From Candidatus Pacearchaeota archaeon (GTDB taxonomy: Archaea; Nanobdellota; Nanobdellia; Pacearchaeales; GW2011-AR1), in the NCBI GenBank assembly GCA_023132255.1, contig JAGLYK010000011.1, forward strand, positions 5,847 through 69,846: a stretch of 64,000 bases of DNA. The letters run 5' to 3'. Under the pieces are notes generated by a model. The model saw only the letters and a program-made list of their open reading frames with translations. It was not told where the DNA came from and did not search any database. Of this stretch, positions 28,427 to 47,731 are shown one piece after another. Positions within the stretch are counted from its first letter, which is position 1. Each line of letters begins with the position of its first letter. A program made the position numbers and the translations under genes.

Positions 28427-29368
28427 TTATTTGATTTTTTCTATTTCAGATAAATTTTTTACTGCTTTAATCAAATTATTTATTTTTTTTAGGGGTTCTC
28501 CTAAACTTAAGATAATATATTTTAAATTAAATTCTGTGGCTTTCTTGTGAGCTTTGATTATGTCTGCCTCGCTGATTCTTTTTTTATTGTATGCAACAAG
28601 AAGTTTTTCTTCTCCTTTAGTTTTTATGCGTAAAATCAAATCACTCTTACTGAAGTTTTCAATATCTAAAATTTCAATTGATTTTCCAGACAGAAACTCT
28701 TTCACTTTATTGAAGAATTTATCATTGTTCTTTTTTGTTGCAGTTCTTTTTTTAGCAGGAGTTTTTGTGCCCTCTTTAGAGGGTACCTCGTTAGAGGTTC
28801 TCGCGCCGGGAACAGAGTGAGGCGGTACACCTTTAGGTGCTGGTTTTTGTGTGTCGAAGATATTTAACTCTTGTTTATTTGATGTTTTTTCTCCTGGCTT
28901 TTTTTTATCTTCTGGTTGTGAAGATTTTTTTATAGATTTAACTTTTGGAGGTTCAAATTCATTTTCTAAAATTGTGAAATATCTCCAGAAAATCTTTTCA
29001 TCTTTTTTAAAAGCTATTGCAAAATCCTTGATTTCTCTTAATGCAATTCTAATTGCCGGAACTTGCTCGTCGTCTTTTAAAAATTTCTTTCTTTTTAATA
29101 ATTCAAATGCTTCTTTTTCTTTGCTTTTAAGGTGTTGTGAAAATCTTTCGAGCATGGGTTCCTGCCCCGGGATGAGATAGATTGGAGAACTGCCGACTTT
29201 CATAAAACTTAGTTTTATTCTTTTTTCAGAAAGCAATTCAGACAAGAAAGCTGAGGCAAAGAGCATGCTTAATCCGGTTTCACCTGCAATATGAACTGGC
29301 AGACTCGGTCCTCTTTTTTTAAATACAAAAATGATTTTCTCTTTAATATTTGAAGTGTCTTGTACCAT
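28427..29368 (-). CDS. Hypothetical winged-helix-like protein carrying an in-frame GC-rich element insertion.
   Basis: N-terminal VFKKRGPSLPVHIAGETGLSMLFASAFLSELLSEKRIKLS. The element at 28768-28843 encodes APKGVPPHSVPGARTSNEVP. Confidence 0.4.
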   Translation of the reverse strand: MVQDTSNIKEKIIFVFKKRGPSLPVHIAGETGLSMLFASAFLSELLSEKRIKLSFMKVGSSPIYLIPGQEPMLERFSQHLKSKEKEAFELLKRKKFLKDDEQVPAIRIALREIKDFAIAFKKDEKIFWRYFTILENEFEPPKVKSIKKSSQPEDKKKPGEKTSNKQELNIFDTQKPAPKGVPPHSVPGARTSNEVPSKEGTKTPAKKRTATKKNNDKFFNKVKEFLSGKSIEILDIENFSKSDLILRIKTKGEEKLLVAYNKKRISEADIIKAHKKATEFNLKYIILSLGEPLKKINNLIKAVKNLSEIEKIK

Positions 29369-29406
29369 GACTAAAATAAATAGAAAGAGGTTATAAATAT
29401 TATGGG

Positions 29407-30147
29407 TTAAGATTTAGCAATTTTCCATAAGAAGTTATGATGGTTCTTGAAGGTTTCAGCAATTAGTTTATTTTTTATCATAAAAACATAAGGTTTATCT
29501 TCCCAAAGAAATAGGTATACATAATCTTCAAATATATCTATTGCTGTAGGACTTATGTAACCGTTAGGCATATATTTCACTTGAGTGAATTTTTCTTTTT
29601 CCCTATCCTTGCCTAAAGTTGCTTTTGCCGATTTTTCAAGTATGATTTTAAGATTATGTTTTTTTGCGGAACTTCTTAGATTCATGTTTGATAAGAAAGT
29701 TCTTAGAGATTCTAAATCTTTAGCTGGTTCTGGAAAACCAGTAATATAAATTGTAGCCCCTTTAGGACAATCATCAATAATTTTTTTGAACGCTATCTTA
29801 AAACCTTCATATCCTTCATAGATTGCCATTGTTGTTTCATCTTTTTCTGTTTTTCTTAATGAAGATAATTGAGGAACCAAGATTTCTATTTTTTCTTTTA
29901 ACTCTTTCTGTTTTTCTAAGAAAATCTTTGGTTCTGTTGCTTGGAAATGTTTACCATTTTTCTGGAGATTATATGTGGCAAATCCTTTTGAGATTAATGA
30001 GTTGAGTGATTCATAAACTCTTGAGTTTGCTATCTTGGTTGTTTTGATAATTGCCCCTGTTGTGCTATCCCCTTCTCTGAGAAGAAATAGGTAAATTGTA
30101 ATCTCATTTTTTGTTAGCCCAAGTTCTTTTAAAATTTCTGTATTCAT
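29407..30147 (-). CDS. TrmB-family transcriptional regulator.
   Basis: N-terminal HTH LGLTKNEITIYLFLLREGDSTTGAIIKTTKIANSRVYESLNSLISKGF, 246 aa. Confidence 0.65.
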   Translation of the reverse strand: MNTEILKELGLTKNEITIYLFLLREGDSTTGAIIKTTKIANSRVYESLNSLISKGFATYNLQKNGKHFQATEPKIFLEKQKELKEKIEILVPQLSSLRKTEKDETTMAIYEGYEGFKIAFKKIIDDCPKGATIYITGFPEPAKDLESLRTFLSNMNLRSSAKKHNLKIILEKSAKATLGKDREKEKFTQVKYMPNGYISPTAIDIFEDYVYLFLWEDKPYVFMIKNKLIAETFKNHHNFLWKIAKS

Positions 30148-30219
30148 TAAAATTAATAGAATTTAATTGTTATAAATGTTTCTCCTTTCTGGGAGAAAGA
30201 AGATTTAAGTATAATTAAT

Positions 30220-30600
30220 TTGGTTGTGAGAGTAAGTAAAATGGCATTAAAAGGTAAAATTGATATGGAGAAAATGAGAACAAATGGGGAAATTTGTTTA
30301 GATAATTTTAGAGGGAACTATGCTAAGAAAGCCCTTATAGCAATGATTCAAAATTTTCCAATAGATATTAGAGTTACTCCTAGAAGCAAGATTAAAGTAG
30401 AAACCTACGACGACGGGCGTATTATTGAGTTGCATCCTCAAGGATCTTCTGTTGATTATTTTGGGCTTAATAATCTTGATAAAGATAGGTATAATGTTTG
30501 TTTTTCGTCTAGCTCTGATGGTTTCGGGAATCCTAGATGTCTTATTAATGACTCTAAGCAAAAGTGCAGGCTTGAATTATATTCTATTGTGCAGGATTAA
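30220..30600 (+). CDS. Hypothetical protein.
   Basis: ORF only. Confidence 0.3.
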   Translation: MVVRVSKMALKGKIDMEKMRTNGEICLDNFRGNYAKKALIAMIQNFPIDIRVTPRSKIKVETYDDGRIIELHPQGSSVDYFGLNNLDKDRYNVCFSSSSDGFGNPRCLINDSKQKCRLELYSIVQD

Positions 30601-30624
30601 TTAAATTAATGGAAAAGAAATAAA

Positions 30625-30945
30625 ATGAAATTCTTTAAGAAACCAAAAACAATAGATGACCAAATGAAAGAACAGGGATTTTATGAAGGAAATAAGGGGG
30701 TTTTGTTTTTTGCAGAACCTCTTTCAGAAAGAGCTACGCAAGAAGAATGGGAGAAATATAATAATGAAAGAATTCAGAGACATCAAGAAAATCCTTCTAA
30801 ATTATTCAAAAGTTTGTTATTTGATCATCTTTCTGGAGTAAAAGAAATTTATATTATAATTGATCCTGCCAAAAGGCAACCTTACTATATAGGTTCTCGA
30901 GAGGCTTTTTGTAGTAAGTATAAAATTTTTATTAGAGAGGAATAA
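30625..30945 (+). CDS. Hypothetical protein.
   Basis: ORF only. Confidence 0.3.
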   Translation: MKFFKKPKTIDDQMKEQGFYEGNKGVLFFAEPLSERATQEEWEKYNNERIQRHQENPSKLFKSLLFDHLSGVKEIYIIIDPAKRQPYYIGSREAFCSKYKIFIREE

Positions 30946-30946
30946 T

Positions 30947-31465
30947 CTAAGGTCTCAACCACTTAACTTCATAATAAGTTATGTCTCCTTCTTCGTCGAC
31001 AATTGCCAGAAGCAGGTTTTTCTTTGTTGAGTGGGCAACCCTGTTTTTTGCAGAGAATTCATGCCAGGTTAATCTTTTTGATTCATGGTCTGCAAAGACA
31101 ATCCATTTTGCGTGCTTTTTCCCGGGTCTTTGTCCTTTGTCATAAATTCTAAAATCTGCCCCGAACTTTAATGCAGTTTTCACGATATAACCTTTTTCCC
31201 TTAAGTCCTTGAATACAGGATATTTAATCTGGATTTTTTTGTCAATTCTTTTGAATTTATTCATTAATTCTTTTTCTGATATTTTTTTGTTTCTTGAGAA
31301 TACTTCTATTTTATTTTTTTCAACTAAAAATAACGTTTCTGAAAGAGAGTACTGGATTTTCCCTGCAACTGGTTCGCCAAAGCAACTTTTTTTGTAAAGT
31401 GCATGAGCTTCAGAAGAATTGCTGGAAATTATTTCTCCTATGATGTGTGCTTGGATTTTTTTCAT
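30947..31465 (-). CDS. endA: tRNA-splicing endonuclease (EndA, homo-oligomeric type).
   Basis: ALKFGADFRIYDKG...HAKWIV catalytic region (His and Lys); N-terminal LFLVEK; 172 aa. Confidence 0.75.
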   Translation of the reverse strand: MKKIQAHIIGEIISSNSSEAHALYKKSCFGEPVAGKIQYSLSETLFLVEKNKIEVFSRNKKISEKELMNKFKRIDKKIQIKYPVFKDLREKGYIVKTALKFGADFRIYDKGQRPGKKHAKWIVFADHESKRLTWHEFSAKNRVAHSTKKNLLLAIVDEEGDITYYEVKWLRP

Positions 31466-31499
31466 AGATTATTAAAGAAATAACAATATTTAAAAGTTA

Positions 31500-34400
31500 T
31501 TGAAAGGTAATTATCTTATGAAATACAATTTCAAAAAACTTGAAAAGAAATGGCAGAGGAAGTGGGAGCAGGAGAAAGTTTTTTGGGTTGATGTTCAGCA
31601 GAAATCCAAGAAGAAAAAATTTTATTTGATGGAGATGTTTCCGTATCCATCGGCTTTGGGGCTGCATTTGGGTCATGTGTTGAATTATACTATTGGCGAT
31701 ATTCTTGCACGTTTTAAGAGGATGAAGGGGTTTAATGTTTTGTATCCAATGGGGTTTGATTCACTTGGACTGCCTGCGGAGAATGCGGCGATAAAAGCAG
31801 GAACACATCCGAAGCCTTACACAAAAAAGGCGATTAAGAATTATATCAAGCAGATGAAGGATTTGGGGCTGAGTTATGATTGGAGTAAGCTTGTGAATAC
31901 AATGGAGCCGGAATATTATAAATGGAACCAGTTGTTTTTTCTGAAGTTTTTGGAGAAAGGTTTGGCTTATCGGAAAAAGTCTGCGGTGAATTGGTGTCCT
32001 GAGTGTAATAGTGTTTTGGCGAATGAGCAGGTGCATAATGGAAAGTGCTGGAGGCATGAGGATACTGAGGTTGAGATTAAACATCTGGAGCAGTGGTTTT
32101 TGAAAATTACAGATTATGCTGATGAACTGCTGGACGGGATTAATGATTTGCAGTGGCCTCAGAAAATTAAAACAATGCAGAAAAACTGGATTGGAAAAAG
32201 TTATGGGACTGAGATTGATTTTGAGATAGAGAATACCGACGAGAAAATTTCAAATGTTGTGATTGTTCATGGGTCACCAAAGGAAGACAGACCTGATGAA
32301 TTTCCTCAAAATAAAAAACATTGGATTCTTTGGTTAAAGAAAGAATTAGAAAATCAAGGAATTAACACACATAATATTTTAATGCCTCAACCTTGGAAAC
32401 CAAATTATGAAAATTGGAAAAAAGAATTTGAAAAATTAAATGTTAATGAAAATACAATTTTAGTTGGACATAGTGCAGGAGGAGCATTTATGGTTCGATG
32501 GCTTAGTGAAAAACCGAGAAAAATAAAAAAACTAATTTTGATTGCTCCATCGAAGGAGACTACGAAAGATAGTCAGAGATTAAAAGAATTTTGTAATTTT
32601 AATATCAATGAAAAAATAAAAGATTTTGTTAAAGAAATAATAATCTTCATTTCTAATGATAAAAAAGAAACAATTAGGAGTGCTGGAATTTATAAAAAAA
32701 AATTAAATGCAGAATTAATAAATTTAGAGAATAGAGGTCATTTTACACTAAATGGAATGAAAACAAAAGAATTTCCAGAACTTCTTGAAAAAATTATTTC
32801 AAATAAAAAATTCCCTGTTTTTACAACTCGTCCTGATACAATTTATGGTGTAACTTTTATGGTTGTTTCTGCGCAGCATGAAAAATTAATGGAGTTAGTT
32901 ACTAAAGAGCAGAAAAAAGATGTTGAGAAATTTTTGCATAAAATTAAAAGTGTATCTGATAAGGATGCTGTTAACTTAGACAAGCAGGGAGTTTTCACTG
33001 GGAGTTATGCAATTAATCCGATTAATGGAGAAAAGGTTCCTGTTTATGCAGGGAATTTTGTTGTGGCTGAATATGGCTCTGGAATGGTGATGGGTGTTCC
33101 TGCACATGACCAAAGAGATTTTGATTTTGCGAAGAAATATGGTTTGGAGATTAGAGAAGTTATTAAAGGGGGGGATGTGAAAAAACAATCTTATATTGGT
33201 TCTGGGAAATTGATTAATTCTTCAAGTTTCAATGGTTTGGAAAATGAAAAAGCAAAACAAGAAATCACTAAATTTTTGGAGAAGAAAAAGTTGGGAAGGA
33301 AAACTGTTCAGTTTAAAATGCGTGATTGGTTGATTTCTCGTCAGAGATATTGGGGGACGCCGATTCCTGTTGTTTATTGTGACAAGTGCGGGATTGTTCC
33401 GGTTGATGAAAAAGATTTGCCTGTGATTTTGCCTGAGAAAGTTGTGTTTGGAAAAGGCAATCCTCTTGCGACAAATGAAAAGTTTGTGAATGTGAAATGC
33501 CCGAAATGCAATGCCAAGGCGAAAAGGGAAACAGATACAATGGATACTTTTGTTGATTCGTCGTGGTATTTTATGAGGTACCCTGATAATAAAAATTCTA
33601 AAGAACCGTTTGATAAAAAGATTGAGGCGGATTGGCTGCCTGTTGACCAATATATTGGAGGGATTGAACACGCGACAATGCATTTGCTTTATGCGAGATT
33701 CTGGACAAAGGCTCTTCGGGATTTGGGTTATGTGAATTATGACGAGCCGTTTACAAAACTGTTTAATCAGGGGATGTTGCATGGGGAGGACGGAGAGAAA
33801 ATGTCAAAGTCAAAAGGAAATGTTATTCTGCCGGAAATTGTTTCTGAAAAATATGGAATTGATACTGCGAGATTTTTCCTGATGTCCCTTGCTGCTCCGG
33901 ACAAACCTCGAGATTGGAGTGATAAAGGTGTGCAGGGAAGTTTGAAATTTATTAACAAAGTGATGAGTTATTTTGGCACCCAAGGGTGTACCCCACAAGG
34001 GGGCATCAAGATTGGAAAATCTTCTGCGAAAATTGAGAGTAAGTTAAATAAAACAATTAAAGAAGTTACAGGGCAGATTGAAAATTTTAAATATAATTTG
34101 GCTGTGATTAAGATTCGGGATTTGTTTAATTCTTTGGGTGAAGAAGAGAGCAAGGATGTTTTGGAAAAAAGTTTGAAATTGCTGCACCCTTTTTGCCCTC
34201 ATATTACAGAAGAAATTTGGGAGAAGATTGGATCATCCTCGAAAAACCGAGGACGTAAAAATTTTATTTGTTTAGAAAAATGGCCTGTTGCTGACGAGAA
34301 AAAGATTGACGAGAAGTTTGAAAAACAAGAACAAGCTGCTGAAAAGTTAAAATCAGATATAGAGCAGATTAAAAAATTAACAGGGCACCACGGGCGTACC

Positions 34401-34601
34401 CCGAAAGATTTTTTACAAAAATCTTTACAAGGGGCAAAGAAAGAGGTTAAGGTTTATGTTTATGTTCTGCCAAATGAATTGGATTTGTATTCTGAAATTA
34501 AAGGGATTGAAGTTTTTGCAGTTAATGACAAGAAAAAATATGACCCCAAAAATAAATCAAAGAAAGTTAAACCAGGAAGACCAGGGGTTTATTTAGAATG
34601 A
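31500..34601 (+). CDS. leuS: Leucyl-tRNA synthetase with an alpha/beta serine-hydrolase domain (about 187 aa, YdeN/RBBP9-like) inserted immediately before the CP1 editing domain.
   Basis: HLGH (HIGH) motif and NWIGKS, then the insert (nt 32250-32810, VIVHGS...LVGHSAGG...RGHFT), then TTRPDT editing domain with VPAHD, and KMSKS. Confidence 0.85.
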   Translation: MKGNYLMKYNFKKLEKKWQRKWEQEKVFWVDVQQKSKKKKFYLMEMFPYPSALGLHLGHVLNYTIGDILARFKRMKGFNVLYPMGFDSLGLPAENAAIKAGTHPKPYTKKAIKNYIKQMKDLGLSYDWSKLVNTMEPEYYKWNQLFFLKFLEKGLAYRKKSAVNWCPECNSVLANEQVHNGKCWRHEDTEVEIKHLEQWFLKITDYADELLDGINDLQWPQKIKTMQKNWIGKSYGTEIDFEIENTDEKISNVVIVHGSPKEDRPDEFPQNKKHWILWLKKELENQGINTHNILMPQPWKPNYENWKKEFEKLNVNENTILVGHSAGGAFMVRWLSEKPRKIKKLILIAPSKETTKDSQRLKEFCNFNINEKIKDFVKEIIIFISNDKKETIRSAGIYKKKLNAELINLENRGHFTLNGMKTKEFPELLEKIISNKKFPVFTTRPDTIYGVTFMVVSAQHEKLMELVTKEQKKDVEKFLHKIKSVSDKDAVNLDKQGVFTGSYAINPINGEKVPVYAGNFVVAEYGSGMVMGVPAHDQRDFDFAKKYGLEIREVIKGGDVKKQSYIGSGKLINSSSFNGLENEKAKQEITKFLEKKKLGRKTVQFKMRDWLISRQRYWGTPIPVVYCDKCGIVPVDEKDLPVILPEKVVFGKGNPLATNEKFVNVKCPKCNAKAKRETDTMDTFVDSSWYFMRYPDNKNSKEPFDKKIEADWLPVDQYIGGIEHATMHLLYARFWTKALRDLGYVNYDEPFTKLFNQGMLHGEDGEKMSKSKGNVILPEIVSEKYGIDTARFFLMSLAAPDKPRDWSDKGVQGSLKFINKVMSYFGTQGCTPQGGIKIGKSSAKIESKLNKTIKEVTGQIENFKYNLAVIKIRDLFNSLGEEESKDVLEKSLKLLHPFCPHITEEIWEKIGSSSKNRGRKNFICLEKWPVADEKKIDEKFEKQEQAAEKLKSDIEQIKKLTGHHGRTPKDFLQKSLQGAKKEVKVYVYVLPNELDLYSEIKGIEVFAVNDKKKYDPKNKSKKVKPGRPGVYLE

Positions 34602-35170
34602 ATGTTGTGATTATTCATGGAAGTAGTTCTAAGGATAGAGAAAATATAAAAAAATATGGGCTTCCTCCTCAAAATGAAAGACATTGGCTTCCTTGGATTA
34701 AATATGAATTAGAAAAAAAGAATATTCAAACTTTTACTCCGTTAATGCCTAAGAATTGGAAAGAAGAATATGAAGATTGGAAAAGAGAGTTTGAAAAAAA
34801 TGAAATTAATAAAGATAGTATTTTAGTTGGGCATAGTTCTGGGGCAGATTTTTTAGTTAGGTGGTTAGGAGAAACAGGTAGAAATGTCAAAAAATTAATT
34901 TTGGTAGCACCTGGCAAATTATATACGAATTATTCAGTTTCTTTTACAAAGTTTTGTGATTTTAAAATTGATTCTAAAATTAAGAATAACATTGGGGAGA
35001 TTATTATTTTTATTTCAAATAATGATTTGGAAGTTATTTTTAAGAGTGCTAAATTATATGAAAAAAAGTTAAATGCAAAATTAATAGAATTGAAAGGTAG
35101 AGGGCATTTTACAGAGAAAGGAATGGGAACAAAAGAATTTCCTGAATTGTTGGAAAAAATCTTGGAATGA
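34598..35170 (+). CDS. Free-standing serine hydrolase (YdeN/RBBP9-like alpha/beta hydrolase), paralog of the LeuRS insert.
   Basis: VVIIHGS...LVGHSSGA...RGHFT; about 55% identical to LeuRS aa 251-437; start overlaps the leuS stop. Confidence 0.75.
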   Translation: MNVVIIHGSSSKDRENIKKYGLPPQNERHWLPWIKYELEKKNIQTFTPLMPKNWKEEYEDWKREFEKNEINKDSILVGHSSGADFLVRWLGETGRNVKKLILVAPGKLYTNYSVSFTKFCDFKIDSKIKNNIGEIIIFISNNDLEVIFKSAKLYEKKLNAKLIELKGRGHFTEKGMGTKEFPELLEKILE

Positions 35171-35262
35171 AAACAATTAAATACTTTGATTTTTACTTAG
35201 TTTTAGGAATAAAATTCCAGAAGTCCTTAGGGCTTTGAGTAATTAAAAAAAAGGAGATAAAG

Positions 35263-35652
35263 ATGGTTTATACAGCAGTTGAGAACATTGCGTTTGTTGT
35301 GATTATTGCTGGTTTGATAAAGATGTTTGTTCTTTTAATTAAGCCTCAGGCATGGATGAATTTTGCGAAGAGGATTTATAGCAAACCACAGATTGCGAAA
35401 TTTGTCAGCTTAATTTTGGCAGTGGTTGTTTTTTATTATTTGTATAGTGCAGGAATTACAGTTGTTGAGATTTTAGCAGTAACGGCATTTGTAGCTCTTT
35501 TGATGATGATAGCACTTGCAGATGAAGTTGACTACCTTCTCAAGAAATATCAGGCAATGATCAAGAAAGGCAATCTTTGGAAGAACTATTGGCTTTATAC
35601 ATTATTGTGGCTTGTTTTAATGTTTTGGGGTCTTAAAGAACTTCTCATGTAA
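35263..35652 (+). CDS. Small membrane protein.
   Basis: About 4 predicted TM helices. Confidence 0.4.
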   Translation: MVYTAVENIAFVVIIAGLIKMFVLLIKPQAWMNFAKRIYSKPQIAKFVSLILAVVVFYYLYSAGITVVEILAVTAFVALLMMIALADEVDYLLKKYQAMIKKGNLWKNYWLYTLLWLVLMFWGLKELLM

Positions 35653-35711
35653 TTTTTATTTTTTATTTTATTTTTCGATAGTTTTTTATAATTGTTTTTA
35701 TATTTTGTTTT

Positions 35712-39135: not shown

Positions 39136-39719
39136 TATATTTTAGAAAAAATGTTTGCATCTACTTTTTCAATTTGTTTTTTGATTATTTCTATTTCATT
39201 TTCCCATGAATCTAATTTTCTTTCTTCGTTTTCTTTTACATCTTTTATATGTTTAAGCATCTTTTCTATTTCTGAAATTTTATCTTTAGTCTTTTCAAAT
39301 ATTTTCAAGCTTTCTTCAAACTTATCTATTCTTATGAAAACTGGTTCAGCTTTTTTTGTTGAAGTTTCAAAATCCTCTGAAATTTCATCAGTTCTTCTTT
39401 CAAATGGAATTCCTTTGATTTTTGCAAGATGAGAAAATTCTGGCACCGGAGGTTCTCTTAGAGGCCTTTGCATCATTTGCTTGTCCTCTGCAAAATCATC
39501 TGCTTCAGGAACCTCTTCACCTTCTTTTTTCCCAGCCACAGCTTCTTTAATTGTGTTCTGAGAGAATTTTTCCCCTAAAGAATTTGTAGGAAAGCTAGGT
39601 AGTTGATGTATCTTAGAATTATCTAATGAGTTCTCCTCTATGTTTGGCAACTCTGGAAGCTTTGGAAGTTCAGGCAACGAAGGAACTTCTTTCTCCTTTT
39701 TTTTATTAAACCACCCCAT
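39135..39719 (-). CDS. Hypothetical protein, acidic and coiled-coil.
   Basis: ORF only. Confidence 0.3.
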   Translation of the reverse strand: MGWFNKKKEKEVPSLPELPKLPELPNIEENSLDNSKIHQLPSFPTNSLGEKFSQNTIKEAVAGKKEGEEVPEADDFAEDKQMMQRPLREPPVPEFSHLAKIKGIPFERRTDEISEDFETSTKKAEPVFIRIDKFEESLKIFEKTKDKISEIEKMLKHIKDVKENEERKLDSWENEIEIIKKQIEKVDANIFSKI

Positions 39720-39949
39720 TTTATATTAATTCAATATATACTTTTTAATATATATAAAATATAATAATAGTTTAAAAACTTTTGTGAAAATTCTTCTAGA
39801 GGTATAACAAAACCGAAAGAAAGAACTCTCTTTAAATAAAGATTCTTCTGCGATTTTGCATGACAAAACCAATTTCCATATAGAAATATTCCAACGTTTC
39901 TGTTCCACAGAACCGAAAGATATTTATTTGAATTAATTCTCATATTCTA

Positions 39950-40735
39950 ATGCTAAAAAAATTTCTCAAAGAAGTTATTACTATTGTCGTCGGAAAACAA
40001 GCAGAAGGTATTGTGGAGTTGCTTATTAGTGAAAGATATGTTAATGAATTTTTGATTGCAAAAAAAATGGACCTTACAATTAATCAAACAAGAAATATTC
40101 TTTATAAAATTTCAGATTATGGCTTGGTATCTTCTACGAGAAAGAAAGATAAGAAAAAAGGATGGTATACTTATTCCTGGAAAATTGAAATTCTTAAATC
40201 TTTGTTGTTTTTGAGAAATGATTTGATTAAGAAAATAAGTCAAATAAATAATCAGATTAATAGCAGGGAAACTAAGCAGTTTTATGTTTGTGAGAGATGC
40301 AATATAGAGATTAACGAGGAGAATGCCATGCTTTATGATTTTACTTGTAAGGAGTGTGGAGATATTTTTGTTCTAAAAAATAATGAAAAATTTTTGAAAG
40401 ATATTAGAAGAAATTTATCCCGATTAAACAGGGAATTAGGACTTATTGATGAGGAAATTGAGAAGCAAAGAATTAAGATGGATAAAAAGAAGATGAGAGA
40501 ATTAAAGAAACAGGAAAAGATTAAATCTGCAGCGAGGAAAAAGGCATCTGCAATTAGAAAAGCTACGAAAAAGAAATCTGCAAAAAAAGTAGTTAAAGAT
40601 AAATCCTCTAAAAAAACAAAATCTGTGGTAAAAGTTAAGAAGCCAGTAAAAAAGAAATTAATAAAAAAGAAAGTTGTTAAGAAAAAACTATCTAAAAAGG
40701 TTAAAAAACCAGTAAAGAAGAAGGGGAAGAAGTAA
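39950..40735 (+). CDS. tfe: Transcription factor E (TFE alpha) with a long Lys-rich C-terminal tail.
   Basis: N-terminal winged helix, Zn ribbon CERC...CKEC, then about 80 aa of KKxxKK repeats. Confidence 0.65.
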   Translation: MLKKFLKEVITIVVGKQAEGIVELLISERYVNEFLIAKKMDLTINQTRNILYKISDYGLVSSTRKKDKKKGWYTYSWKIEILKSLLFLRNDLIKKISQINNQINSRETKQFYVCERCNIEINEENAMLYDFTCKECGDIFVLKNNEKFLKDIRRNLSRLNRELGLIDEEIEKQRIKMDKKKMRELKKQEKIKSAARKKASAIRKATKKKSAKKVVKDKSSKKTKSVVKVKKPVKKKLIKKKVVKKKLSKKVKKPVKKKGKK

Positions 40736-41407
40736 ATGGGAGTTTATCAGATTTATCCTAAGAAGAAGAAAAATCTTTTTCCGAACTTGAGTGTGACTGT
40801 TAGTTTGATTTTAATTAATGTTGTTTTATTTATATTAGTTCGGGTTTTGTTATCTATAGAAATTATATCTGAAAATTTTTTTATGAGTGATATTGCTATT
40901 TCATTGGAAAATATCAAACAATTAAGGTTGTGGACTTTTTTAACAAGTATGTTTATGCATGGAGGTTTTTTCCATCTTTTTGCAAATATGTTTTCTTTAA
41001 TGTTTATTGGCGGTTTAATTGAAAGAATTTTGGGAAAAAAAAGATATTTATGGTTTTATTTAATATCAGGTTTATTTGCGGGAGTTTTATATATACTAAT
41101 TGAATTTTTATCTCCTTCTAATCTTCCGGCTGTAGGGGCTTCAGGAGCTTTGTTTGGTTTAGTTGGATTGTTGGTTTTATTGACTCCCAATCTTCCTGTT
41201 TATGTTATGTTTATTCCAATTCCTATTAAGATGAAATACGCTGGTCCGGGAATTTTAATTGTATTGTGGATTATTTCAAGAGCAGCCAATATTGGTATTG
41301 GGAACACAGCTCATCTTGGAGGATTAGTGTGTGGATTGGCTTATGGGATGTACTTGAAGACCAAATATAAAAATAAGACTAAATGGTTGAGTAGGCATTT
41401 TAGCTAA
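40736..41407 (+). CDS. Rhomboid-family intramembrane serine protease.
   Basis: GASGALFGLVGLL (GxSG) and AHLGGLVCGLAYG (His) in TM helices. Confidence 0.75.
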   Translation: MGVYQIYPKKKKNLFPNLSVTVSLILINVVLFILVRVLLSIEIISENFFMSDIAISLENIKQLRLWTFLTSMFMHGGFFHLFANMFSLMFIGGLIERILGKKRYLWFYLISGLFAGVLYILIEFLSPSNLPAVGASGALFGLVGLLVLLTPNLPVYVMFIPIPIKMKYAGPGILIVLWIISRAANIGIGNTAHLGGLVCGLAYGMYLKTKYKNKTKWLSRHFS

Positions 41408-41995
41408 ATGAAAAAAAATAAATTTAATCTGAAAAGAGAATATAAAGAAAGTTGGAATTATATTAAAGAGTCAAAGAACTTTATTTATTCTATTATAGGG
41501 GTATTTTTTGGTTTTACGTTAATTGGTTTTTTTGTTCCTGCTTCTGAGGAGATTACAAAGATAATTTTAGAATTTATTGAGAAACTTTTAGAACAAACTA
41601 AAGATATGTCTCAATTGGAATTGATTAGATTTATTTTCGTGAATAATCTACAAAGCAGTTTTTTTGGATTAATTTTCGGAGTTGCTTTAGGAATTTTTCC
41701 TGTGTTGGCTGCTGTTGCTAATGGTTATGTTTTAGGTTTTGTCGGAGCCATTAGTGTTGAAACTGAAGGAATTTTTGTTTTGTGGAGAATTTTTCCTCAT
41801 GGAATTTTTGAACTGCCCGCGATTTTTATTTCTCTTGGTTTGGGGTTAAAGTTAGGAAGTTTTATCTTTAGGAAAGAAAAAGGAAAATTCTTTAGAAGAT
41901 GTTTTTGGAATTCATTAAGAGTGTTTTTGTTTGTTGTGATACCTCTTTTAATTATTGCAGCGATTATTGAAGCCAGTTTGATATTTCTTGGATAA
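41408..41995 (+). CDS. SpoIIM/DUF95-like membrane protein.
   Basis: Multi-TM protein with FGVALGIFPVLAAVANGYVLG...IFPHGIFELPAIFIS. Confidence 0.45.
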   Translation: MKKNKFNLKREYKESWNYIKESKNFIYSIIGVFFGFTLIGFFVPASEEITKIILEFIEKLLEQTKDMSQLELIRFIFVNNLQSSFFGLIFGVALGIFPVLAAVANGYVLGFVGAISVETEGIFVLWRIFPHGIFELPAIFISLGLGLKLGSFIFRKEKGKFFRRCFWNSLRVFLFVVIPLLIIAAIIEASLIFLG

Positions 41996-42092
41996 CCAAC
42001 AAATATATAAATAAAACAAATATTTTATTGGTAGGAAAGAGAGTGAAAAAAATTAGGGATTTTCCCCCACTTGCTCGTTTCTTAAGAGCCAA

Positions 42093-42680
42093 ATGAAAGC
42101 GAATCAATACCTCAGGAGGCATAAGCCAAGTAGGTCCATGGGAAGATTTCCATTCGTCCGCAGAGGACTTCGAACGAAAGCACAAGTGAAATTATCTTTT
42201 GGGATGATTTTTTCAATTATATTGATGATTGTTTTTATTGCGTTTGCTTTTTTTGCAATTCAAAAATTTCTTGGTTTGAAAGATACTATTAGTGTTGGGA
42301 AATTTGCAGATGATTTTCAGTCAGATGTTAATAAGTTGTGGAAAAGTTCGCAAGGTTCTCAAGAATTAGAATATTCTTTGCCAAAAAAAATAGAGTATGT
42401 TTGTTTTGCGAATCTTTTGAAGCCAGAGCAAGGTGCTTATGAAGATGAAGATTTTTATGAAGAATTTAGGAAATATTTTACAGATGAGAATTTGTTTTTT
42501 TATCCTGTTGATTCTACAGAATTAAATGGTCTTGAAATAAAGCATATTGATATTGAAAAAATAACTGAAAATGAAAATCCTTTTTGCATAGAAAATATCA
42601 AAGGGAAAATAAAGATAGTTCTTAAAAAAGATTTTGGAGATGCCTTGGTTTCTGTGACTAGTTTATTGCAAGATGATTAA
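42093..42680 (+). CDS. Membrane-anchored hypothetical protein.
   Basis: Basic N-terminus encoded by a GC-rich patch, single TM. Confidence 0.35.
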   Translation: MKANQYLRRHKPSRSMGRFPFVRRGLRTKAQVKLSFGMIFSIILMIVFIAFAFFAIQKFLGLKDTISVGKFADDFQSDVNKLWKSSQGSQELEYSLPKKIEYVCFANLLKPEQGAYEDEDFYEEFRKYFTDENLFFYPVDSTELNGLEIKHIDIEKITENENPFCIENIKGKIKIVLKKDFGDALVSVTSLLQDD

Positions 42681-42787
42681 AGTTTCTAATTATAAAAAGA
42701 AGTTTAATTTTTTTATTTGGATAAGTTAATTTTATATAGTTTAATTTCCTGTATATTTTATATAATTAAAAAGGAGGGTGTTGAAAA

Positions 42788-42958
42788 ATGAAAAGAATTA
42801 GTTCTGTTTTGGTAGTGCTTTTAGGTTTGATTTTGTTACTTCCCCTAATTGGTGTAAATCAATTTGGATCGTTAACTGAAGGAATTTTTGGTTGGGGAAC
42901 AGCAATCTTTGTTTTGGTGATTGGAGTAATTGAAGTTATCAAAAATTTTGCTAAATAA
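42788..42958 (+). CDS. Small (56 aa) two-TM membrane protein.
   Basis: AAGGAGGGTG Shine-Dalgarno-like site 8 nt upstream of ATG. Product MKRISSVLVVLLGLILLLPLIG...; not in the ORF track because it is under 60 aa. Confidence 0.45.
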   Translation: MKRISSVLVVLLGLILLLPLIGVNQFGSLTEGIFGWGTAIFVLVIGVIEVIKNFAK

Positions 42959-43016
42959 TAATTTTAGTTTCCTATTTCTTATTTTTTAATTCATAGTGGA
43001 TACTTTAGAATTAAAA

Positions 43017-43220
43017 TTAATCCTTCAAATCGCTAATTCCCAGAACAATCAAAAGAAAACCTATCATTAATAAGAGCCAGACTACTCCGCCTTTGAGAAA
43101 TTCCCATGTGGCGTGCTTGAAGTTCCAGAATGCTCCGAACCATTCACCTGAAAACCATGCAAAGAATATCACGGCGTTTACTAAGATTAATCCAATCAAG
43201 AGTTCAATCCATTTATTCAT
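43017..43220 (-). CDS. Small two-TM membrane protein.
   Basis: ORF only; hydrophobic. Confidence 0.35.
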   Translation of the reverse strand: MNKWIELLIGLILVNAVIFFAWFSGEWFGAFWNFKHATWEFLKGGVVWLLLMIGFLLIVLGISDLKD

Positions 43221-43415
43221 TGTAATATTTATTGGTGATTTTTGTTTAAAAAGATTTTGATACTGGAATATAACTTTTAGAAAGTCTTAAAAACTAATTT
43301 ATTTTTTAAAAAATATGAATATTCAATTGTTTAGTGAGAGTTTGGCAATACCTATTTTATAATTCTATTTGTAAATTTGTGTTAATACAATGAAAAAAGT
43401 AAATCAAAGATTTCC

Positions 43416-44504
43416 ATGTTTTCCTTTTTGGAGGAACCAAAAATGAAAAAAGTAAAAGATTTTTTATGGAAACCTAATATGACTGTGGGAGAATGTGTGG
43501 ATAGTTTTGGCTATCTTGGTTATCAAGCGATTGAGTTGAATGAAGCTGTGAAGGTTGTTTTAAAAATGAAAAGATCCGGGGCAAAGATTTTTTTAACCTT
43601 TACTTCTAATATGGTTACTTCTGGATTAAGAGGGTTTTTTGCTCAATTATGCAAGATGAAAATACCAAATATTCTGGTAACAACTTCAGGAGCAATTGAA
43701 GAAGACATTATGAAATCTCTTGGTGAAGAATTTGAGGTTACTAATTTTTATGCAGATGATGTTCAGCTTCATGAGAAGGGAGAGAATAGGGTTGGGAATT
43801 TGATAATTAGAAATGAAAGTTTTATGAAATTTGAGGATTTGATGAACGAATATTTGACAAAGATTTATGAAAAACAGCGAGAAGCTAATACTTCTGCGTC
43901 AAAAGTAAACTTTGCCGGAAGGATTTCAGTTTCTGATTTATTAAAAGAAATTGGGTTGATGATGGCACCTAAAGGTGTACCCTCTGATACCACTGGTATG
44001 ACCTCTGAAGATGGAGGCCTTATGCAGGATGGAATAAGCGAGGGCAACGAAAATTCAATTTTGTATCAGGCAGCGAAAAATAATATTCCAATTTATTGTC
44101 CTGGAATTGCTGACTCAAGTTTTGGGTTTCAGTTATTTATGTTCCAGCAAAAGCACCCTGATTTTATTGTTGATACAATTAAGGATATGCAGAGAGTTGT
44201 GACTGATTTAAGTTTTGATGAAAAAAAAGGATTAATTAGTCTTGGAGGAAGCACTTCAAAACATTATGCGATTTTTGCAGCTTTGTTAAGCGGGGGTTTT
44301 GATTATGCAGTTTATATGACAACTTCTCATGCAGGTTCAGGAAGTTTGTCCGGAGCAACAACACAGGAAGCAAAATCATGGGGAAAGTTGAAAGATGATG
44401 CAGAGGCTGCTACTGTTAATGGAGATGTCTGCATAACTTTTCCTTTAATGATGTGCAGTGTTTTAGATAAGATGAAAGAGGAAGGATTGTTGAAAGACAA
44501 TTAA
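43416..44504 (+). CDS. dys: Deoxyhypusine synthase with an in-frame GC-rich element insertion.
   Basis: LISLGGSTSKHYAIFAALLSGGFDYAVYMTTSHAGSGSLSGA matches the DHS C-terminal signature. Element at 43965-44044 encodes APKGVPSDTTGMTSEDGG. Confidence 0.7.
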   Translation: MFSFLEEPKMKKVKDFLWKPNMTVGECVDSFGYLGYQAIELNEAVKVVLKMKRSGAKIFLTFTSNMVTSGLRGFFAQLCKMKIPNILVTTSGAIEEDIMKSLGEEFEVTNFYADDVQLHEKGENRVGNLIIRNESFMKFEDLMNEYLTKIYEKQREANTSASKVNFAGRISVSDLLKEIGLMMAPKGVPSDTTGMTSEDGGLMQDGISEGNENSILYQAAKNNIPIYCPGIADSSFGFQLFMFQQKHPDFIVDTIKDMQRVVTDLSFDEKKGLISLGGSTSKHYAIFAALLSGGFDYAVYMTTSHAGSGSLSGATTQEAKSWGKLKDDAEAATVNGDVCITFPLMMCSVLDKMKEEGLLKDN

Positions 44505-45466
44505 AAAACATCAGGTAACATTTTCGGCTCTAACTCTTTTTCAATATTAATTAATTCATATTCAATTAAATTTTCTGCAAAAGTTTCTTTTATTTTATTA
44601 ATTTCTTTTTTAAGTTCTTCAGGATGTTTATAAATTATTTGGAATGTTGTGTTAAATTTCCCAACACTTAAAGAAAAAGCATGCACCCTGTCTCTTTGTT
44701 TAGCATAGGTTCGCAGTTTATTTTGAAATGGCTTGGACAAATTATTCATCTTGATATTTATTAAAGTTAAATTATATCCAATTACATCAAGATTAAGAAA
44801 AATTCTATAACCGAGAATCATGTTTTTTTCAATACGCTTTAAACGATAATTTATTGTTTCAATTTTTGAGTTGACTTTGTGTGCTAATTCAACAATTTTT
44901 ATATTTGCATTTTCTGCGAGGATAGATAATATTTTTTTATCCAAGTCATCTAAAACAATTTGCCTGCTTTCTGCATAACTTAAAGTTTTATCATATTCTG
45001 TTTTCCCAAAAATTTTTAATGGAAAATAATGGATTTCAATTGGTTCAAGAATTTCATAGTCTGATAATTCATGCTTCCATAATTCATAAAGATAAGAAAT
45101 AAATTCTAAAATACTTGTTTTATCTTTTGCAAAAACCGACACCATGTAATCCCATTGCCCATAACAAGATACCCGCGTGAATATTAAAATGTTTTTCAGA
45201 TTATTTATTTCTGCTAATTTTTTTATCTGGGGATTTTTCACCCTTAATTTAATAATGTAATTTTTGTCATAACCAAGTGCGTGCAAATTAATTCCAGCAA
45301 GATATTTATTTATTAATCCGGATTTCTCGTATTTTTTAATTCTGTATTCTGCCTGTTCTCGTGAGATTCTGCATTTTTTTGCAATCTGTGTTATTGGAGT
45401 TCTAAAATTATGAAAAATATAACCAAGTAATTTCTTATCAATTTTATCTAATTTTAATTCCTGCAT
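44501..45466 (-). CDS. Tandem (duplicated) Lrp/AsnC-family transcriptional regulator.
   Basis: Two HTH_AsnC plus RAM modules: LDKIDKKLLGYIFHNFRTPITQIAKKCRIS and LDDLDKKILSILAENANIKIVELAHKVNS. Confidence 0.65.
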   Translation of the reverse strand: MQELKLDKIDKKLLGYIFHNFRTPITQIAKKCRISREQAEYRIKKYEKSGLINKYLAGINLHALGYDKNYIIKLRVKNPQIKKLAEINNLKNILIFTRVSCYGQWDYMVSVFAKDKTSILEFISYLYELWKHELSDYEILEPIEIHYFPLKIFGKTEYDKTLSYAESRQIVLDDLDKKILSILAENANIKIVELAHKVNSKIETINYRLKRIEKNMILGYRIFLNLDVIGYNLTLINIKMNNLSKPFQNKLRTYAKQRDRVHAFSLSVGKFNTTFQIIYKHPEELKKEINKIKETFAENLIEYELINIEKELEPKMLPDVF

Positions 45467-45687
45467 ATTCTGATAAATAATAAGATGTTTTTAAATCTTA
45501 CTAATTAAAGTGAAATAAGAGGGAATACTTTAATGGATTGTGTAAAAATTGGTAGAAAGTTATATTAAGAAGGGTTACTTGGGAATATTAACTAAATAGT
45601 GGTAAGAACTTATGGAAGAAGAAAATAAAATAGGAAACTTGCACCAAAATGTATCTTTAGATAGAGCTGAAAGGAGGTATAAATAAA

Positions 45688-46410
45688 ATGAATTTTTTTA
45701 AAAAGAAACTATCGCCAGAAAGTTATGTCTTTGGGTGTGTAGAAGTACTAAAGAAATTGGGAAATGCTCTCTCAGAAGGAGAGGACAGGGAAGTCAAAAA
45801 TGGAGAATATAATGGTTTATTCGCCGAAGAATTTAAAATATATAACATTGCTGAAAAAGAAAAGATAGGAATCATTGGATCTCTTGAAAAGGGCCATTCC
45901 CTAAATAAAGAATCCTGTAATCTAATTTTAGAAAATTTGATTCAAGATGAAGAAATAGCGAATGTATTGATACAGTCTAAAAGAAAGAATTTTGAAGATG
46001 CAATAGGAGATTGTAAGAATTTGGGTTATTCAAACTCTTTTTCAAGCTATAAGAACATAGTATTAGATGCCATAACCGACTCTGTCTCATTAAAATTTAA
46101 AACAGATAGTGGTCCATTCGGTTATGACCCCTCTAGATTTATCTATAGATTAGTGGTGAACACCCCAGAAATATCTTCAATTGTATTGAAAGAAGAAATC
46201 TCAAGAGATGATTCTGATTTGAATACTTTAAAGAGAAAAGTCAAAACAAAATTAGACGAAATTCTTAAAGATGATTTAAATGAATTTTATAAGAATACGG
46301 ATTTTTCAGAAAACAAAAGAAATGAAATAAATGGGATTGTAACAGATGGAGTAAGAAAGAATGTACAATGTTTAAAAAATTGCCTTAATACTATAAGGAT
46401 GTCTAAATGA
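45688..46410 (+). CDS. Hypothetical protein.
   Basis: ORF only. Confidence 0.3.
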   Translation: MNFFKKKLSPESYVFGCVEVLKKLGNALSEGEDREVKNGEYNGLFAEEFKIYNIAEKEKIGIIGSLEKGHSLNKESCNLILENLIQDEEIANVLIQSKRKNFEDAIGDCKNLGYSNSFSSYKNIVLDAITDSVSLKFKTDSGPFGYDPSRFIYRLVVNTPEISSIVLKEEISRDDSDLNTLKRKVKTKLDEILKDDLNEFYKNTDFSENKRNEINGIVTDGVRKNVQCLKNCLNTIRMSK

Positions 46411-46591
46411 CCTTCTTTAGTATCTTAAAAGACTAGCATATATTGTAGGCGAAAAATCATATGCGATAGGTCATGGTGATTGGGGAGAAACATTTTGTTA
46501 GTATCCAGTTTTATATTTGAAGATTAAAAAATAAAAAATAAAAAGTATCACAGAAATTTTAAATAAGAAAAACACTTAAATACACTCTATC

Positions 46592-47731
46592 TTGTTTTTT
46601 GTTATGGAACCTAAATTCATCCTCTCAAAATCCAAACTTCTTGAACAAGTAACAACCCTAAAAAATCTTGGATTAAAAATTTCTTATAGTTATAAAACCA
46701 ACAGGGAAGTCGGAAATGTTTTGCAAGAAATTTCTGATTGTGATTTTTCAATTCATGCTAAAGAGGAGATTGATATGATTAAAGACAAGTCCAGGATTTG
46801 GTTTTTTACTCAGGCAGAACCTGAAGAAGAGTTGAAAGAGATTTTAAAGAAGGGAATAAAAAATTTTGTTATTGATAATGAAATTGATTTGGAAAGAATT
46901 TTGAATGTCCTAAACAAAATAAATGTTAGCATAAACCTTTCTTTAAGGATGAAATTTCAGGAGCATAGAATTGGGAGTGGGAAATATTTTGTTTATGGAA
47001 TGAGTTCAAAGAAAATAAATGAGATAATAGCGAGGATAAAAGATAGTTCTTATATAGATAAAATTGGAGTTCATATTCACAGAAAATCACAAAATACAAG
47101 TGAGTGGGAAATTAAAGAAGAGTTGGAAGATTCTTTGACAAAAGAGAGTTTGGAGAGGATTGATTTTTTGAATTTTGGAGGAGGTCTTCCGGCAAAATAT
47201 CGGAGTTATGTTTCAGAAGTGCTGGTTTATATTTTTAAAAAAATAACAAATGCAAAAGAATTTTTAGAGAAATATAATATTAAGACATATATTGAACCAG
47301 GCAGATTTTTTGCTGCACCTTGTATAAAACTTGAGACAGAAATTATTCAAATTCAAAAGAATAATTTGATAATTAATACCACGATTTATAATTGTGCGTT
47401 GGATACTGTTTTGACAGGAACAAAAATGCTTGTTGAAGGAGAGATTGAAGACTCTGCACCTAAAGGTGTACCGCCTTACTACGTTCCCGGTACGAGAACC
47501 TCTAACGAGGTACCCCCTGATATACAGGATGGAATACTCGGGGGCAAAGATGAAAAATTTTATTTAATTAAAGGAAACTCTCCAACACGAGATGATATTT
47601 TTAGATATAAAGTTAAATTAAAAAATCCAAAAGTTGGGGATAAAATAGTTTTCTTAAATGCAGGGGCTTATAATTATACAACTGATTTTTTTGGTTATAA
47701 AAAGTTGAAGACTGAAGTAGGTAGTGGGTAG
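46592..47731 (+). CDS. PLP-dependent fold-III decarboxylase (Orn/Arg/DAP decarboxylase family) with an in-frame GC-rich element insertion.
   Basis: FGGGLP and EPGRFF motifs. Element at 47456-47549 encodes APKGVPPYYVPGTRTSNEVPPDIQDGILGG. Confidence 0.6.
   Translation: MFFVMEPKFILSKSKLLEQVTTLKNLGLKISYSYKTNREVGNVLQEISDCDFSIHAKEEIDMIKDKSRIWFFTQAEPEEELKEILKKGIKNFVIDNEIDLERILNVLNKINVSINLSLRMKFQEHRIGSGKYFVYGMSSKKINEIIARIKDSSYIDKIGVHIHRKSQNTSEWEIKEELEDSLTKESLERIDFLNFGGGLPAKYRSYVSEVLVYIFKKITNAKEFLEKYNIKTYIEPGRFFAAPCIKLETEIIQIQKNNLIINTTIYNCALDTVLTGTKMLVEGEIEDSAPKGVPPYYVPGTRTSNEVPPDIQDGILGGKDEKFYLIKGNSPTRDDIFRYKVKLKNPKVGDKIVFLNAGAYNYTTDFFGYKKLKTEVGSG
47456..47549. repeat. GC-rich interspersed element, the longest copy, inserted in-frame in the decarboxylase gene.
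   Basis: Termini gcacctaaaggtgtacc ... cgggggcaaag; the core is about 90% identical to the reverse complement of 28768-28843. Confidence 0.7.

Follow-up and report, generated by a model that had tools for sequence, protein, structure and literature searches.

We analysed a 64,000-nt stretch of contig JAGLYK010000011.1 from a Candidatus Pacearchaeota archaeon, referred to below as the window, which carries leuS, a deoxyhypusine synthase (DHS) gene and a gene for a pyridoxal phosphate (PLP)-dependent decarboxylase. An earlier note, made from the letters alone, had described a family of short GC-rich repeats lying inside these genes and in other places. We found that this six-copy family is real, and every copy was recovered where it had been placed (Table 1). 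The elements form GC islands (0.5-0.65 GC) in a window of approximately 0.30 GC. Homologues of its DHS place the organism among DPANN archaea of the Pacearchaeota type.

A repeat family made of adjacent hairpins

Using the left-end motif GCACCNNNNGGNGTACC with up to two mismatches, we identified five matches in the 64-kb window against 0.24 expected, a count that was reached in 0 of 100 dinucleotide-preserving shuffles. The copy at 34385 escapes this pattern, as the loop of its first hairpin has 3 nt. Similarly, the 8-mer GGYGTACC occurs exactly six times in the 64 kb, each time within one of the six elements. A covariance model (R1) was built from an alignment (A9) of 18 real copies, all from other genomes, and was run on the window without filters. 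It identified the six known sites only at E<0.05, and the two composite copies were matched twice each. The motif is above chance both by its enrichment in the window and by its spread through a whole archaeal lineage, as described below.

Both ends of the element had been proposed to be conserved. This holds for the left end, which is enriched, but not for the right-end 9-mer GGGGCAAAG taken alone, which matched 11 times where 8.9 matches are expected; the right end carries information solely as the 3′ arm of the second hairpin. The sites themselves stood, while the ends of copies 2 to 6 had to be redrawn, and the redrawn lengths are multiples of three for all genic copies. The copy at 27465, previously taken for a remnant, is actually a complete 40-nt element of subfamily B. 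The label 'winged-helix' for the open reading frame (ORF) around copy 6 was not verified, since this ORF has no Pfam, NCBIfam or credible PDB match; the sole ORF over copy 1 gave no family match either. The remaining sequence-level claims agreed with our results. The copies at 28768 (-) and 47456 are approximately 92% identical over 60 nt, and those at 43965, 47456 and 28840 (-) share one frame, in which GCA CCT AAA GGT GTA is read as APKGV. The two leuS copies are in another phase, no stop is introduced by any copy, and most orthologues are without the segments, which favours insertion over ancestral sequence.

Each copy has the same order of parts: hairpin 1 (GCACC, a 3-4 nt loop and GGYGT), a single A, hairpin 2 (CCCC or CCCTC, a variable loop, and GGGG or GAGGG) and a CAAAR tail. 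CCCC/GGGG alternates with CCCTC/GAGGG, so both arms of hairpin 2 change together. The hairpins form on folding, with minimum-free-energy folds showing two of them side by side in four of the six copies; the fold z-scores (-0.9 to -3.1) are modest, in line with expectation for sequences this short. The left terminus is a hairpin in itself, and the right terminus consists of the 3′ arm of hairpin 2 and CAAAR. No terminal inverted repeats were found in the 130 non-redundant copies inspected (ends GCACC... and ...GGGCAAAG), nor did the flank profiles of the copies show an upstream consensus or target site; downstream, A-A-R-A is conserved. No Rfam family matched any element at gathering thresholds, nor over 27300-47700 at E up to 5.

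Extra hairpin modules enter either at the hairpin 2 loop or at the junction between GTA and CC, and the junction composites carry one or two of them. Thus, copies 5 and 6 hold two added modules between hairpins 1 and 2 (CCGCC..CGG and CGAGAA-CCTC-TAAC-GAGG-TA). Copy 6 folds into four hairpins (z=-3.1) in the order hairpin 1, CCGCC..GGCG module, CCTC-TAAC-GAGG module and hairpin 2 (CCCTC-TAAA-GAGGG). Copy 5 has the same inner modules and a hairpin 2 loop related to that of copy 4, in which hairpin 2 is CCCTC...GAGGG with extra small hairpins inside the loop (z=-2.1). Hairpin 2 of copy 3 encloses a 10-bp A/T stem, AAAGATTTTT/AAAAATCTTT. The minimum-free-energy fold of copy 1 is the double hairpin, and the minimal copy 2 scores 28.6 bits with the covariance model (E=1e-6).

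Table 1. The six elements and neighbouring features of the window
Feature	Position	Strand	Host or context	Description
Copy 1	27465-27508	+	probably intergenic, 300 nt downstream of tRNA-Met; sole ORF over it 27416-27766	subfamily B, ACACC-GCCT-GGTGT A CCCC-AAAATACGGAATTCT-GGGG CAAAA; model E=0.011
Copy 2	33976-34005	+	leuS (31500-34601)	minimal, 30 nt, GCACC-CAAG-GGTGT A CCCC-ACAA-GGGG GCA; read GTQGCTPQGG
Copy 3	34385-34438	+	leuS	subfamily C, 54 nt; hairpin 1 loop 3 nt; read HHGRTPKDFLQKSLQGAK
Copy 4	43965-44048	+	DHS gene (43416-44504)	subfamily E-long, 84 nt (APKGVPSDTTGMTSEDGGLMQDGISEGN)
Copy 5	47456-47548	+	PLP-dependent decarboxylase gene (46592-47731)	composite, 93 nt, 31 codons (APKGVPPYYVPGTRTSNEVPPDIQDGILGGK)
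Copy 6	28769-28840	-	uncharacterised ORF 28427-29368 (-), sense	composite, 72 nt, 24 codons (APKGVPPHSVPGARTSNEVPSKEG)
LAGLIDADG ORF	4424-5137 (within 4360-5137)	-	abuts and overlaps 5′ part of the next feature	LAGLIDADG homing endonuclease
Intron-containing tRNA	4360-4481			122 nt
Giant ORF	11816-19135	-		2439 aa
Paired GC islands	17261-17291 and 18311-18341		giant ORF	identical, 31 nt, 1050 nt apart
Second tRNA with long intron	20644-20780
GlyRS ORF	24152-26101			150-aa N-terminal extension
GC island	24350-24415		GlyRS N-terminal extension	66 nt
SHRD[DH]PNG copy	24551-24577	+	GlyRS N-terminal extension	27 nt
EndA gene	30947-31465			splicing endonuclease
Serine-hydrolase domain insert (PF06821)	32310-32753		leuS	LeuRS residues 271-418
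Free-standing PF06821-family paralogue	34598-35170		directly downstream of leuS
Second polymorphic DHS site	43881-43919	+	DHS gene	codons 156-168 (EANTSASKVNFAG)
Low-GC island	47793-52488			24-25% GC; probably an inserted defence island
MmeI-like type IIL restriction-modification enzyme	47793-50933		low-GC island
Schlafen/AlbA_2-HATPase_c_4 gene	51046-52488	-	low-GC island

Subfamilies, spread and site occupancy

We scanned one genome per GTDB species (185,579 species genomes) with the pattern GCACCNNNNGGTGTACCCYN{3,33}RGGGCA and obtained at least 110 matching stretches, against a rough expectation of a few tens of random matches in 2 x 596 Gb. Among the 80 matches listed, approximately 70 came from metagenome-assembled genomes (MAGs) named Pacearchaeota, Woesearchaeota, Nanoarchaeota or 'archaeon', and several of these MAGs had 5-7 separate matches each. 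Eight of the listed loci were bacterial, mostly of high GC (0.47-0.72) with one Flavobacterium locus at 0.37 GC, and they appear to be chance matches. We also considered a viral origin and rejected it, as a scan of viral contigs gave three chance-like matches without hairpin 2 complementarity. In 779 kb of relatives, chosen by DHS alone, the covariance model identified approximately ten copies as compared with six in 64 kb, so the density in the window is approximately seven times higher.

One match, on a 4147-nt contig of 36% GC (JAHJTR010000176.1) that was binned as 'Patescibacteria group bacterium', is a genuine element of subfamily D. The contig probably comes from a DPANN archaeon and was mis-binned, so that the element could serve as a lineage marker.

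Among the 130 non-redundant copies, subfamilies were defined by the hairpin 2 loop, and the family ranges from 28 to 93 nt with subfamilies of approximately 30, 33, 42, 51, 54, 84 and 93 nt. Measured from the first G to the CA, the shortest form, mini, has 28 nt. Subfamily A has 31 nt and the hairpin 2 CCCTC-TRAN-GAGGG, subfamily B 40 nt and ...AAAGYACGGAAT..., subfamily D 49 nt and CCCTCTGTA...TACAGAGGG, and subfamily E 49-82 nt and ...CAGGATGGAA...; in subfamily C (52-55 nt) hairpin 2 encloses a 10-bp A/T stem. Subfamily C sequences of 54 nt were identical in three different MAGs. The copies of the window also have close counterparts at comparison loci, which we label L followed by a number. 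The 30-mer of copy 2 recurs identically in L097, copy 1 is nearly identical to a copy within the decarboxylase gene of L003, and an E-long copy of the same 82-nt size as copy 4, with similar sequence, lies at a different locus in L180.

We compared filled with empty sites in orthologous genes. The orthologue of the ORF around copy 6 in L044 and L046 (87% identical in alignment, 78% by tblastn) lacks exactly the 24 codons of that copy, which amount to 72 additional nt in the window. The decarboxylase gene of the window is longer by 93 nt (31 codons); L001 has no element at the site, and in L003 a 42-nt subfamily B copy lies two codons further 3′. At the first leuS site (33976), a 30-nt element replaces 6 nt. 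L011, which is the closest orthologue (83% identical in alignment, 73% by tblastn), has the two codons for EN there, and L114 has a subfamily C copy three codons away. The 54 nt added at the second leuS site (34385) are missing in L011 and eight other orthologues, while L114 is filled at the same place and L061 is filled 9 nt away. In the DHS gene, an 84-nt element replaces 6 nt and the site is empty in L003. The short form was found in 45 of the 59 DHS alleles scanned, most orthologues having 311-315 aa, and alleles with an element have it at this same site in mini, A, composite or E-long form. In a crude neighbour-joining tree these alleles are spread over four or more separate clades. At this site L001 has GCA followed by GAGGGCAAAG, which looks like the footprint of an interior deletion in an element. 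No target-site duplication was found in the five filled/empty comparisons, and 6 nt of the target were lost in two of the five.

The elements are gained and lost between close relatives, with the same subfamily in unrelated genes of many genomes. Because related elements at the same or neighbouring positions of orthologues belong to another subfamily or are shifted by two to three codons, the pattern points to recurrent insertion into permissive loops.

We also compared copies at apparently orthologous sites. Between the window and L084, the DHS element is 95% identical, the host gene 87% and its third codon positions 73%. For leuS, the corresponding values are 89%, 73% and 63% with L114, and 91%, 70% and 54% with L061. 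Either the copies are younger than the species splits, through recent or recurrent insertion or conversion between copies, or their nucleotide sequence is constrained in place.

The stems covary in two subfamilies. Hairpin 2 of subfamily D is 100% paired with three double-sided pair changes (UA to GC, GC to AU and AU to GC), and all slid controls gave much lower pairing. In the inner stem of subfamily C, three pairs have changes on both sides. Hairpin 1 gave no evidence of covariation because its sequence is nearly invariant, with G.U or A-U at pair 1.

Reading frame, orientation and origin of the elements

Of the 130 non-redundant copies, 102 are in the sense orientation and are spanned by an ORF of 450 nt or more. 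Four are antisense, three of them archaeal and one being the Flavobacterium chance match, and the other 24 lie in shorter ORFs or between genes; five of the 24 are in ORFs of 360-420 nt, all in sense. An open sense frame of 200 nt or more flanks 58 copies on each side, and 47 of these copies keep the same frame across the element. The remaining 11 lie within a few codons of an ORF end and may include real frameshifts. The length from the first G to the CA is mostly 1 mod 3 (28, 31, 34, 40, 49, 52, 82 and 91), which makes a multiple of three together with the AA of the tail. No copy with a TAAA loop was found in the one phase that would turn TAA into a stop. As the frames inside genes are open, the genic copies are most simply explained as read through and translated into extra peptides in surface loops, and such constraints on frame, length and stops would be expected for translated sequence rather than for introns or bypassed segments. 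In an AlphaFold model of DHS (moderate quality, mean pLDDT 62.8), residues 187-209 are predicted to be coil with pLDDT<50 between two helices, and the insert stretch is unaligned to solved DHS structures.

The subfamilies differ in phase. In long ORFs, the A, D, E and mini copies combined have 39 sense copies in phase 0, one in phase 1, none in phase 2 and no antisense copy. Subfamily B has 17, 7 and 2 sense copies in phases 0, 1 and 2 and three antisense copies, and subfamily C has 8, 10 and 7 with no antisense copy. Phase 0 encodes APKGVP...EGK, a hydrophilic peptide rich in Pro, Gly and Lys. In A, D, E and mini, the other sense frames and the antisense frames are intrinsically open in most copies, and phase 0 is dominant all the same, a phase bias best explained by selection on the encoded peptide. 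Selection on the peptide cannot explain the orientation bias in subfamily C. The sense bias of approximately 30:1 holds even for this subfamily, which uses all three phases, and would point to integration or retention being tied to the direction of transcription.

We examined three other causes of the sense bias and rejected each of them. Stop codons do not account for it, as nearly every copy has one or two open antisense frames; in subfamily C this is true of most copies, and still none lies antisense. Better pairing of the sense-strand RNA does not either, since the counts of G.U and A.C are mixed and antisense folds are on average slightly more stable (mean folding energy -16.4 kcal/mol, as compared with -15.4 for sense folds). 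Replication direction was rejected because genes on the two strands alternate along the window, with every copy oriented like the gene that holds it.

Subfamily C was also identified outside protein genes. In two Nanoarchaeota MAGs (L091:5052-5102 and L095:6463-6514), a copy oriented like the rRNA lies upstream of 16S rRNA, 10-11 nt from its mature 5′ end, and the inner stems of the two copies differ by one compensatory change. Each of these loci has a second subfamily C copy; that of L095 lies in a 139-aa sense ORF, and the sequence downstream of the second copy in L091 is similar to that in L095. The earlier note had pointed out a functional link between the DHS and decarboxylase hosts. This link appears incidental, because the hosts across the family are unrelated genes and one is even a 16S rRNA leader.

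Taken together, we consider it likely that the family consists of very small, non-autonomous 'double-hairpin' insertion elements of AT-rich DPANN genomes of the Pacearchaeota and Woesearchaeota type, which resemble Rickettsia palindromic elements (RPEs) and are translated and selfish. The mechanism may be outlined in four steps of decreasing confidence. First, the elements would be selfish and non-autonomous, copied in trans by a structure-specific enzyme that is encoded elsewhere in the genome and recognises the hairpins and the invariant GGYGTACCC junction. Second, integration would resemble break repair or strand annealing rather than cut-and-paste transposition. Third, selection would purge copies that are not a multiple of three, not free of stops or not compatible with a flexible loop, which would lead to the bias towards the phase encoding APKGVP..EGK. 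Fourth, integration or retention would be coupled to the direction of transcription. Such coupling could arise if the intermediate were the coding strand, as single-stranded DNA or as RNA, if the purine-rich coding strand were preferred, or if antisense copies were selected against.

Several points weigh against this interpretation. The selfish nature of the elements is drawn from their distribution alone, and the translation of the inserts is predicted from the sequence. We found no mobilising enzyme, autonomous parent element or transposition intermediate. The sense bias follows neither from stops nor from pairing, and it requires an extra assumption. Recurrent occupation of one loop could partly reflect ancient insertions with many losses, or allelic recombination between lineages. 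Finally, two observations would fit a host function equally well, namely that the element is more conserved than the host gene at apparently orthologous sites, and that two genomes carry it at one and the same place of the 16S leader, with stems that differ by a compensatory change.

The search for a mobilising gene covered the window and the scanned copies. No transposase, integrase or reverse transcriptase was identified among the 53 window ORFs scanned. Neither the window nor the copies without a nearby hairpin 2 yielded an autonomous parent insertion sequence (IS) sharing the ends of the elements. The two identical copies of L095 are inverted, and we considered whether they bound an autonomous element; this candidate was rejected, as one lies in the 139-aa ORF and the other in the 16S leader, and the interval between them has no further repeat structure marking element ends. 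The only mobility-related ORF of the window is that of the LAGLIDADG endonuclease beside a tRNA, which appears unrelated to the elements.

The sense bias and the conservation permit a more specific proposal. It is possible, if rather doubtful, that the family represents a new, transcription-coupled class of mobile element, which would spread or act by way of the transcript or the transcription bubble and use an RNA or non-template-strand intermediate without target duplication, or else that it is a mobile RNA motif recognised by a DPANN-specific factor. This proposal is based on the sense bias, which spans a subfamily used in all phases and the 16S leader, and on conservation exceeding that of the hosts.

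Much of the same evidence is consistent with a host-beneficial structured motif in the sense transcript, such as a protein-binding or processing site or a stabiliser of mRNA or pre-rRNA, for which a mobile origin would still be possible. We regard this alternative as unlikely. The ratio of 102 sense to 3 antisense copies, an element sequence more conserved than the host gene and much more so than third codon positions, the compensatory stem changes and the rRNA-oriented copies next to 16S in two genomes would all suit such a motif. However, presence and absence differ among very close relatives in essential genes, and the density varies approximately 7-fold between relatives (6/64 kb against ~10/779 kb). 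The positions are loop-tolerant sites of the proteins and are not fixed with respect to the start or stop of the mRNA. Moreover, the motif has no Rfam family, and its sense strand shows no better pairing than the antisense; C.A mismatches, which on the opposite strand would be G.U, are common.

[quoted passage not shown] The stems covary as such an origin would allow, and hairpin ends, lack of target duplication and strand specificity resemble IS200/IS605 elements and REPs (for REPs, PMC3733652). Yet the orientation follows the host gene and not the replication arm: the minus copy, in a minus gene, lies 1.3 kb from one plus copy and 5 kb from plus copies in plus genes. Furthermore, the copies have no conserved upstream target tetra- or pentanucleotide and no terminal inverted repeats, and the listed ones carry neither a GTAG nor a CGTC tag. 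The window contains no ORF resembling TnpA, TnpB or RAYT, and a longer version enclosing an ORF was not found among the copies without a nearby hairpin 2.

Removal at the RNA level, as a bulge-helix-bulge intron cut by the splicing endonuclease, or translational bypass similar to that of the 'byps' of yeast mitochondria is very improbable. Introns would need the sense orientation, the genome has intron-containing tRNAs and an EndA gene, and GC-rich hairpins in an AT-rich genome recall the yeast mitochondrial bypass elements. However, no bulge-helix-bulge, which would have two 3-nt bulges separated by a 4-bp helix and involve the flanking exon, could be drawn, as the folds give independent hairpins and the flanks that would have to pair are unconserved. 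The ORFs are open and in frame across the elements, lengths are multiples of three across the subfamilies, and the TAAA-loop copies avoid the phase with a TAA stop, which would be needless if the element were removed or skipped. For the bypass class in particular (byps and the T4 gene 60 type), 47 of the 58 testable copies are continuous and free of stops, so that bypass would be needless.

Ancestral or convergently selected peptide modules, such as an APKGVP..EGK linear motif, are hardly credible as the origin: one phase is used by 39 of the 40 long-ORF copies of A, D, E and mini and the same loop is filled in several lineages, but B and C are read in all three phases into unrelated peptides, copies lie outside ORFs and in an rRNA leader, compensatory stem changes keep the pairing and alter the peptide, third codon positions inside the element are nearly invariant, and the segment is missing in most orthologues.

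Relation to known elements and neighbouring features

The earlier note had likened the family to RPEs, and selfish-DNA-like behaviour of this kind has mainly been known from Rickettsia. RPEs form hairpins, have no transposase, lie in frame in unrelated conserved genes, are translated and occur also in RNA genes (PMC10969869, PMC2229807). They are bacterial, 105-150 bp long, and consist of a single long stem-loop with 12-bp terminal inverted repeats (PMC2229807). The likeness holds for behaviour, since the present elements lie in frame in unrelated genes (leuS, DHS, decarboxylase and others) and in the 16S leader of reduced AT-rich genomes. It does not hold for structure: the present elements are 28-93 nt long, archaeal, modular or nested, with at least two adjacent short hairpins, no terminal inverted repeats and a sense bias of ~30:1. 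As the host is archaeal, common descent with RPEs is not expected, and the likeness is one of behaviour only.

Such elements had further been proposed to be new for small-genome archaea. Indeed, our full-text searches gave no report of such coding elements for DPANN. However, repeats fused into protein genes have been described for Methanocaldococcus jannaschii (Suyama et al. 2005, as cited in PMC2229807). This methanogen belongs to another, euryarchaeal lineage and we liken its coding palindromic repeats to the present elements through that citation alone; going by it, the phenomenon would not be wholly new for archaea.

The present elements share with MITEs a small size, multiple copies, non-autonomy and presence/absence polymorphism, but they are without terminal inverted repeats or target-site duplication, and no parent IS was found. 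REPs co-occur with a RAYT gene. With REPs, the bacterial interspersed mosaic elements (BIMEs) and the IS200/IS605 PATEs, the present elements share hairpin units of 20-40 nt, the lack of target duplication and strand specificity. REPs are extragenic, small palindromic units with a GTAG or CGTC tag (PMC3733652), whereas the present elements are mostly intragenic, follow the direction of transcription and show no tag at either end in the listed copies or in the flank profiles, and the window has no RAYT or Y1 ORF. As the structural definitions of RPEs, MITEs and REPs do not apply, the elements fall outside those families.

The GC clusters and byps of yeast mitochondria and the double-hairpin elements (DHEs) of Allomyces mitochondria are short, mobile, GC-rich hairpins or double hairpins in AT-rich genomes, and they can sit in coding regions. 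We know of no mobilising enzyme for any of them. All of these are organellar, and byps break the frame and are skipped by the ribosome, whereas the present elements keep the frame and are free of stops.

The unusual features of the family are its tiny size, its modularity of multiple hairpins, its lineage-wide spread in the most reduced archaeal genomes and its near-absolute sense bias. A family that lengthens essential proteins such as aminoacyl-tRNA synthetases and DHS would mean that selfish or mobile DNA persists in DPANN genomes, which are among the smallest and most streamlined of any cells. Standard IS and MITE finders are blind to it, as the elements have no inverted repeats, duplications or ORF and measure 28-93 nt. 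For annotation and phylogenomics, the elements create lineage-specific indels in marker genes and place identical nucleotide blocks in distant genomes. The family also provides a natural experiment on insertion-tolerant protein loops and possibly a marker for binning. Moreover, the sense bias and covariation raise the question of transcription-coupled integration or retention in archaea and of its enzyme.

We identified a second, unrelated double-hairpin family of 27 nt, TCCC-ACA-GGGA TSA CCC-TAAC-GGG, which is read SHRD[DH]PNG. Its copies (one in the window, L019:884 and L068:6198) are all in sense and in phase 0. The window copy lies in the N-terminal extension of the glycyl-tRNA synthetase (GlyRS), and those of L019 and L068 lie at the first polymorphic site of the DHS gene. 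The window DHS has a second polymorphic site, whose 13 codons are missing in most orthologues; some orthologues have ANASATKKNFAG-like versions and others members of the SHRDDPNGP family. The window sequence at this site contains the small palindromes AGAAG/CTTCT and AAAGT/ACTTT.

Among the neighbouring genes, leuS encodes a leucyl-tRNA synthetase (LeuRS) of bacterial type with a serine-hydrolase domain insert, and a paralogue of the same family stands free directly downstream. A low-GC island, holding an MmeI-like enzyme and a Schlafen/AlbA_2-HATPase_c_4 gene, splits the decarboxylase gene from a DHH-family gene; the two are near-adjacent (at most one small ORF between them) in L001, L003 and L085, and the island is probably an inserted defence island. 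In the giant ORF, the two identical GC islands suggest a large internal repeat. A further insertion may account for the separate GC island in the N-terminal extension of GlyRS.

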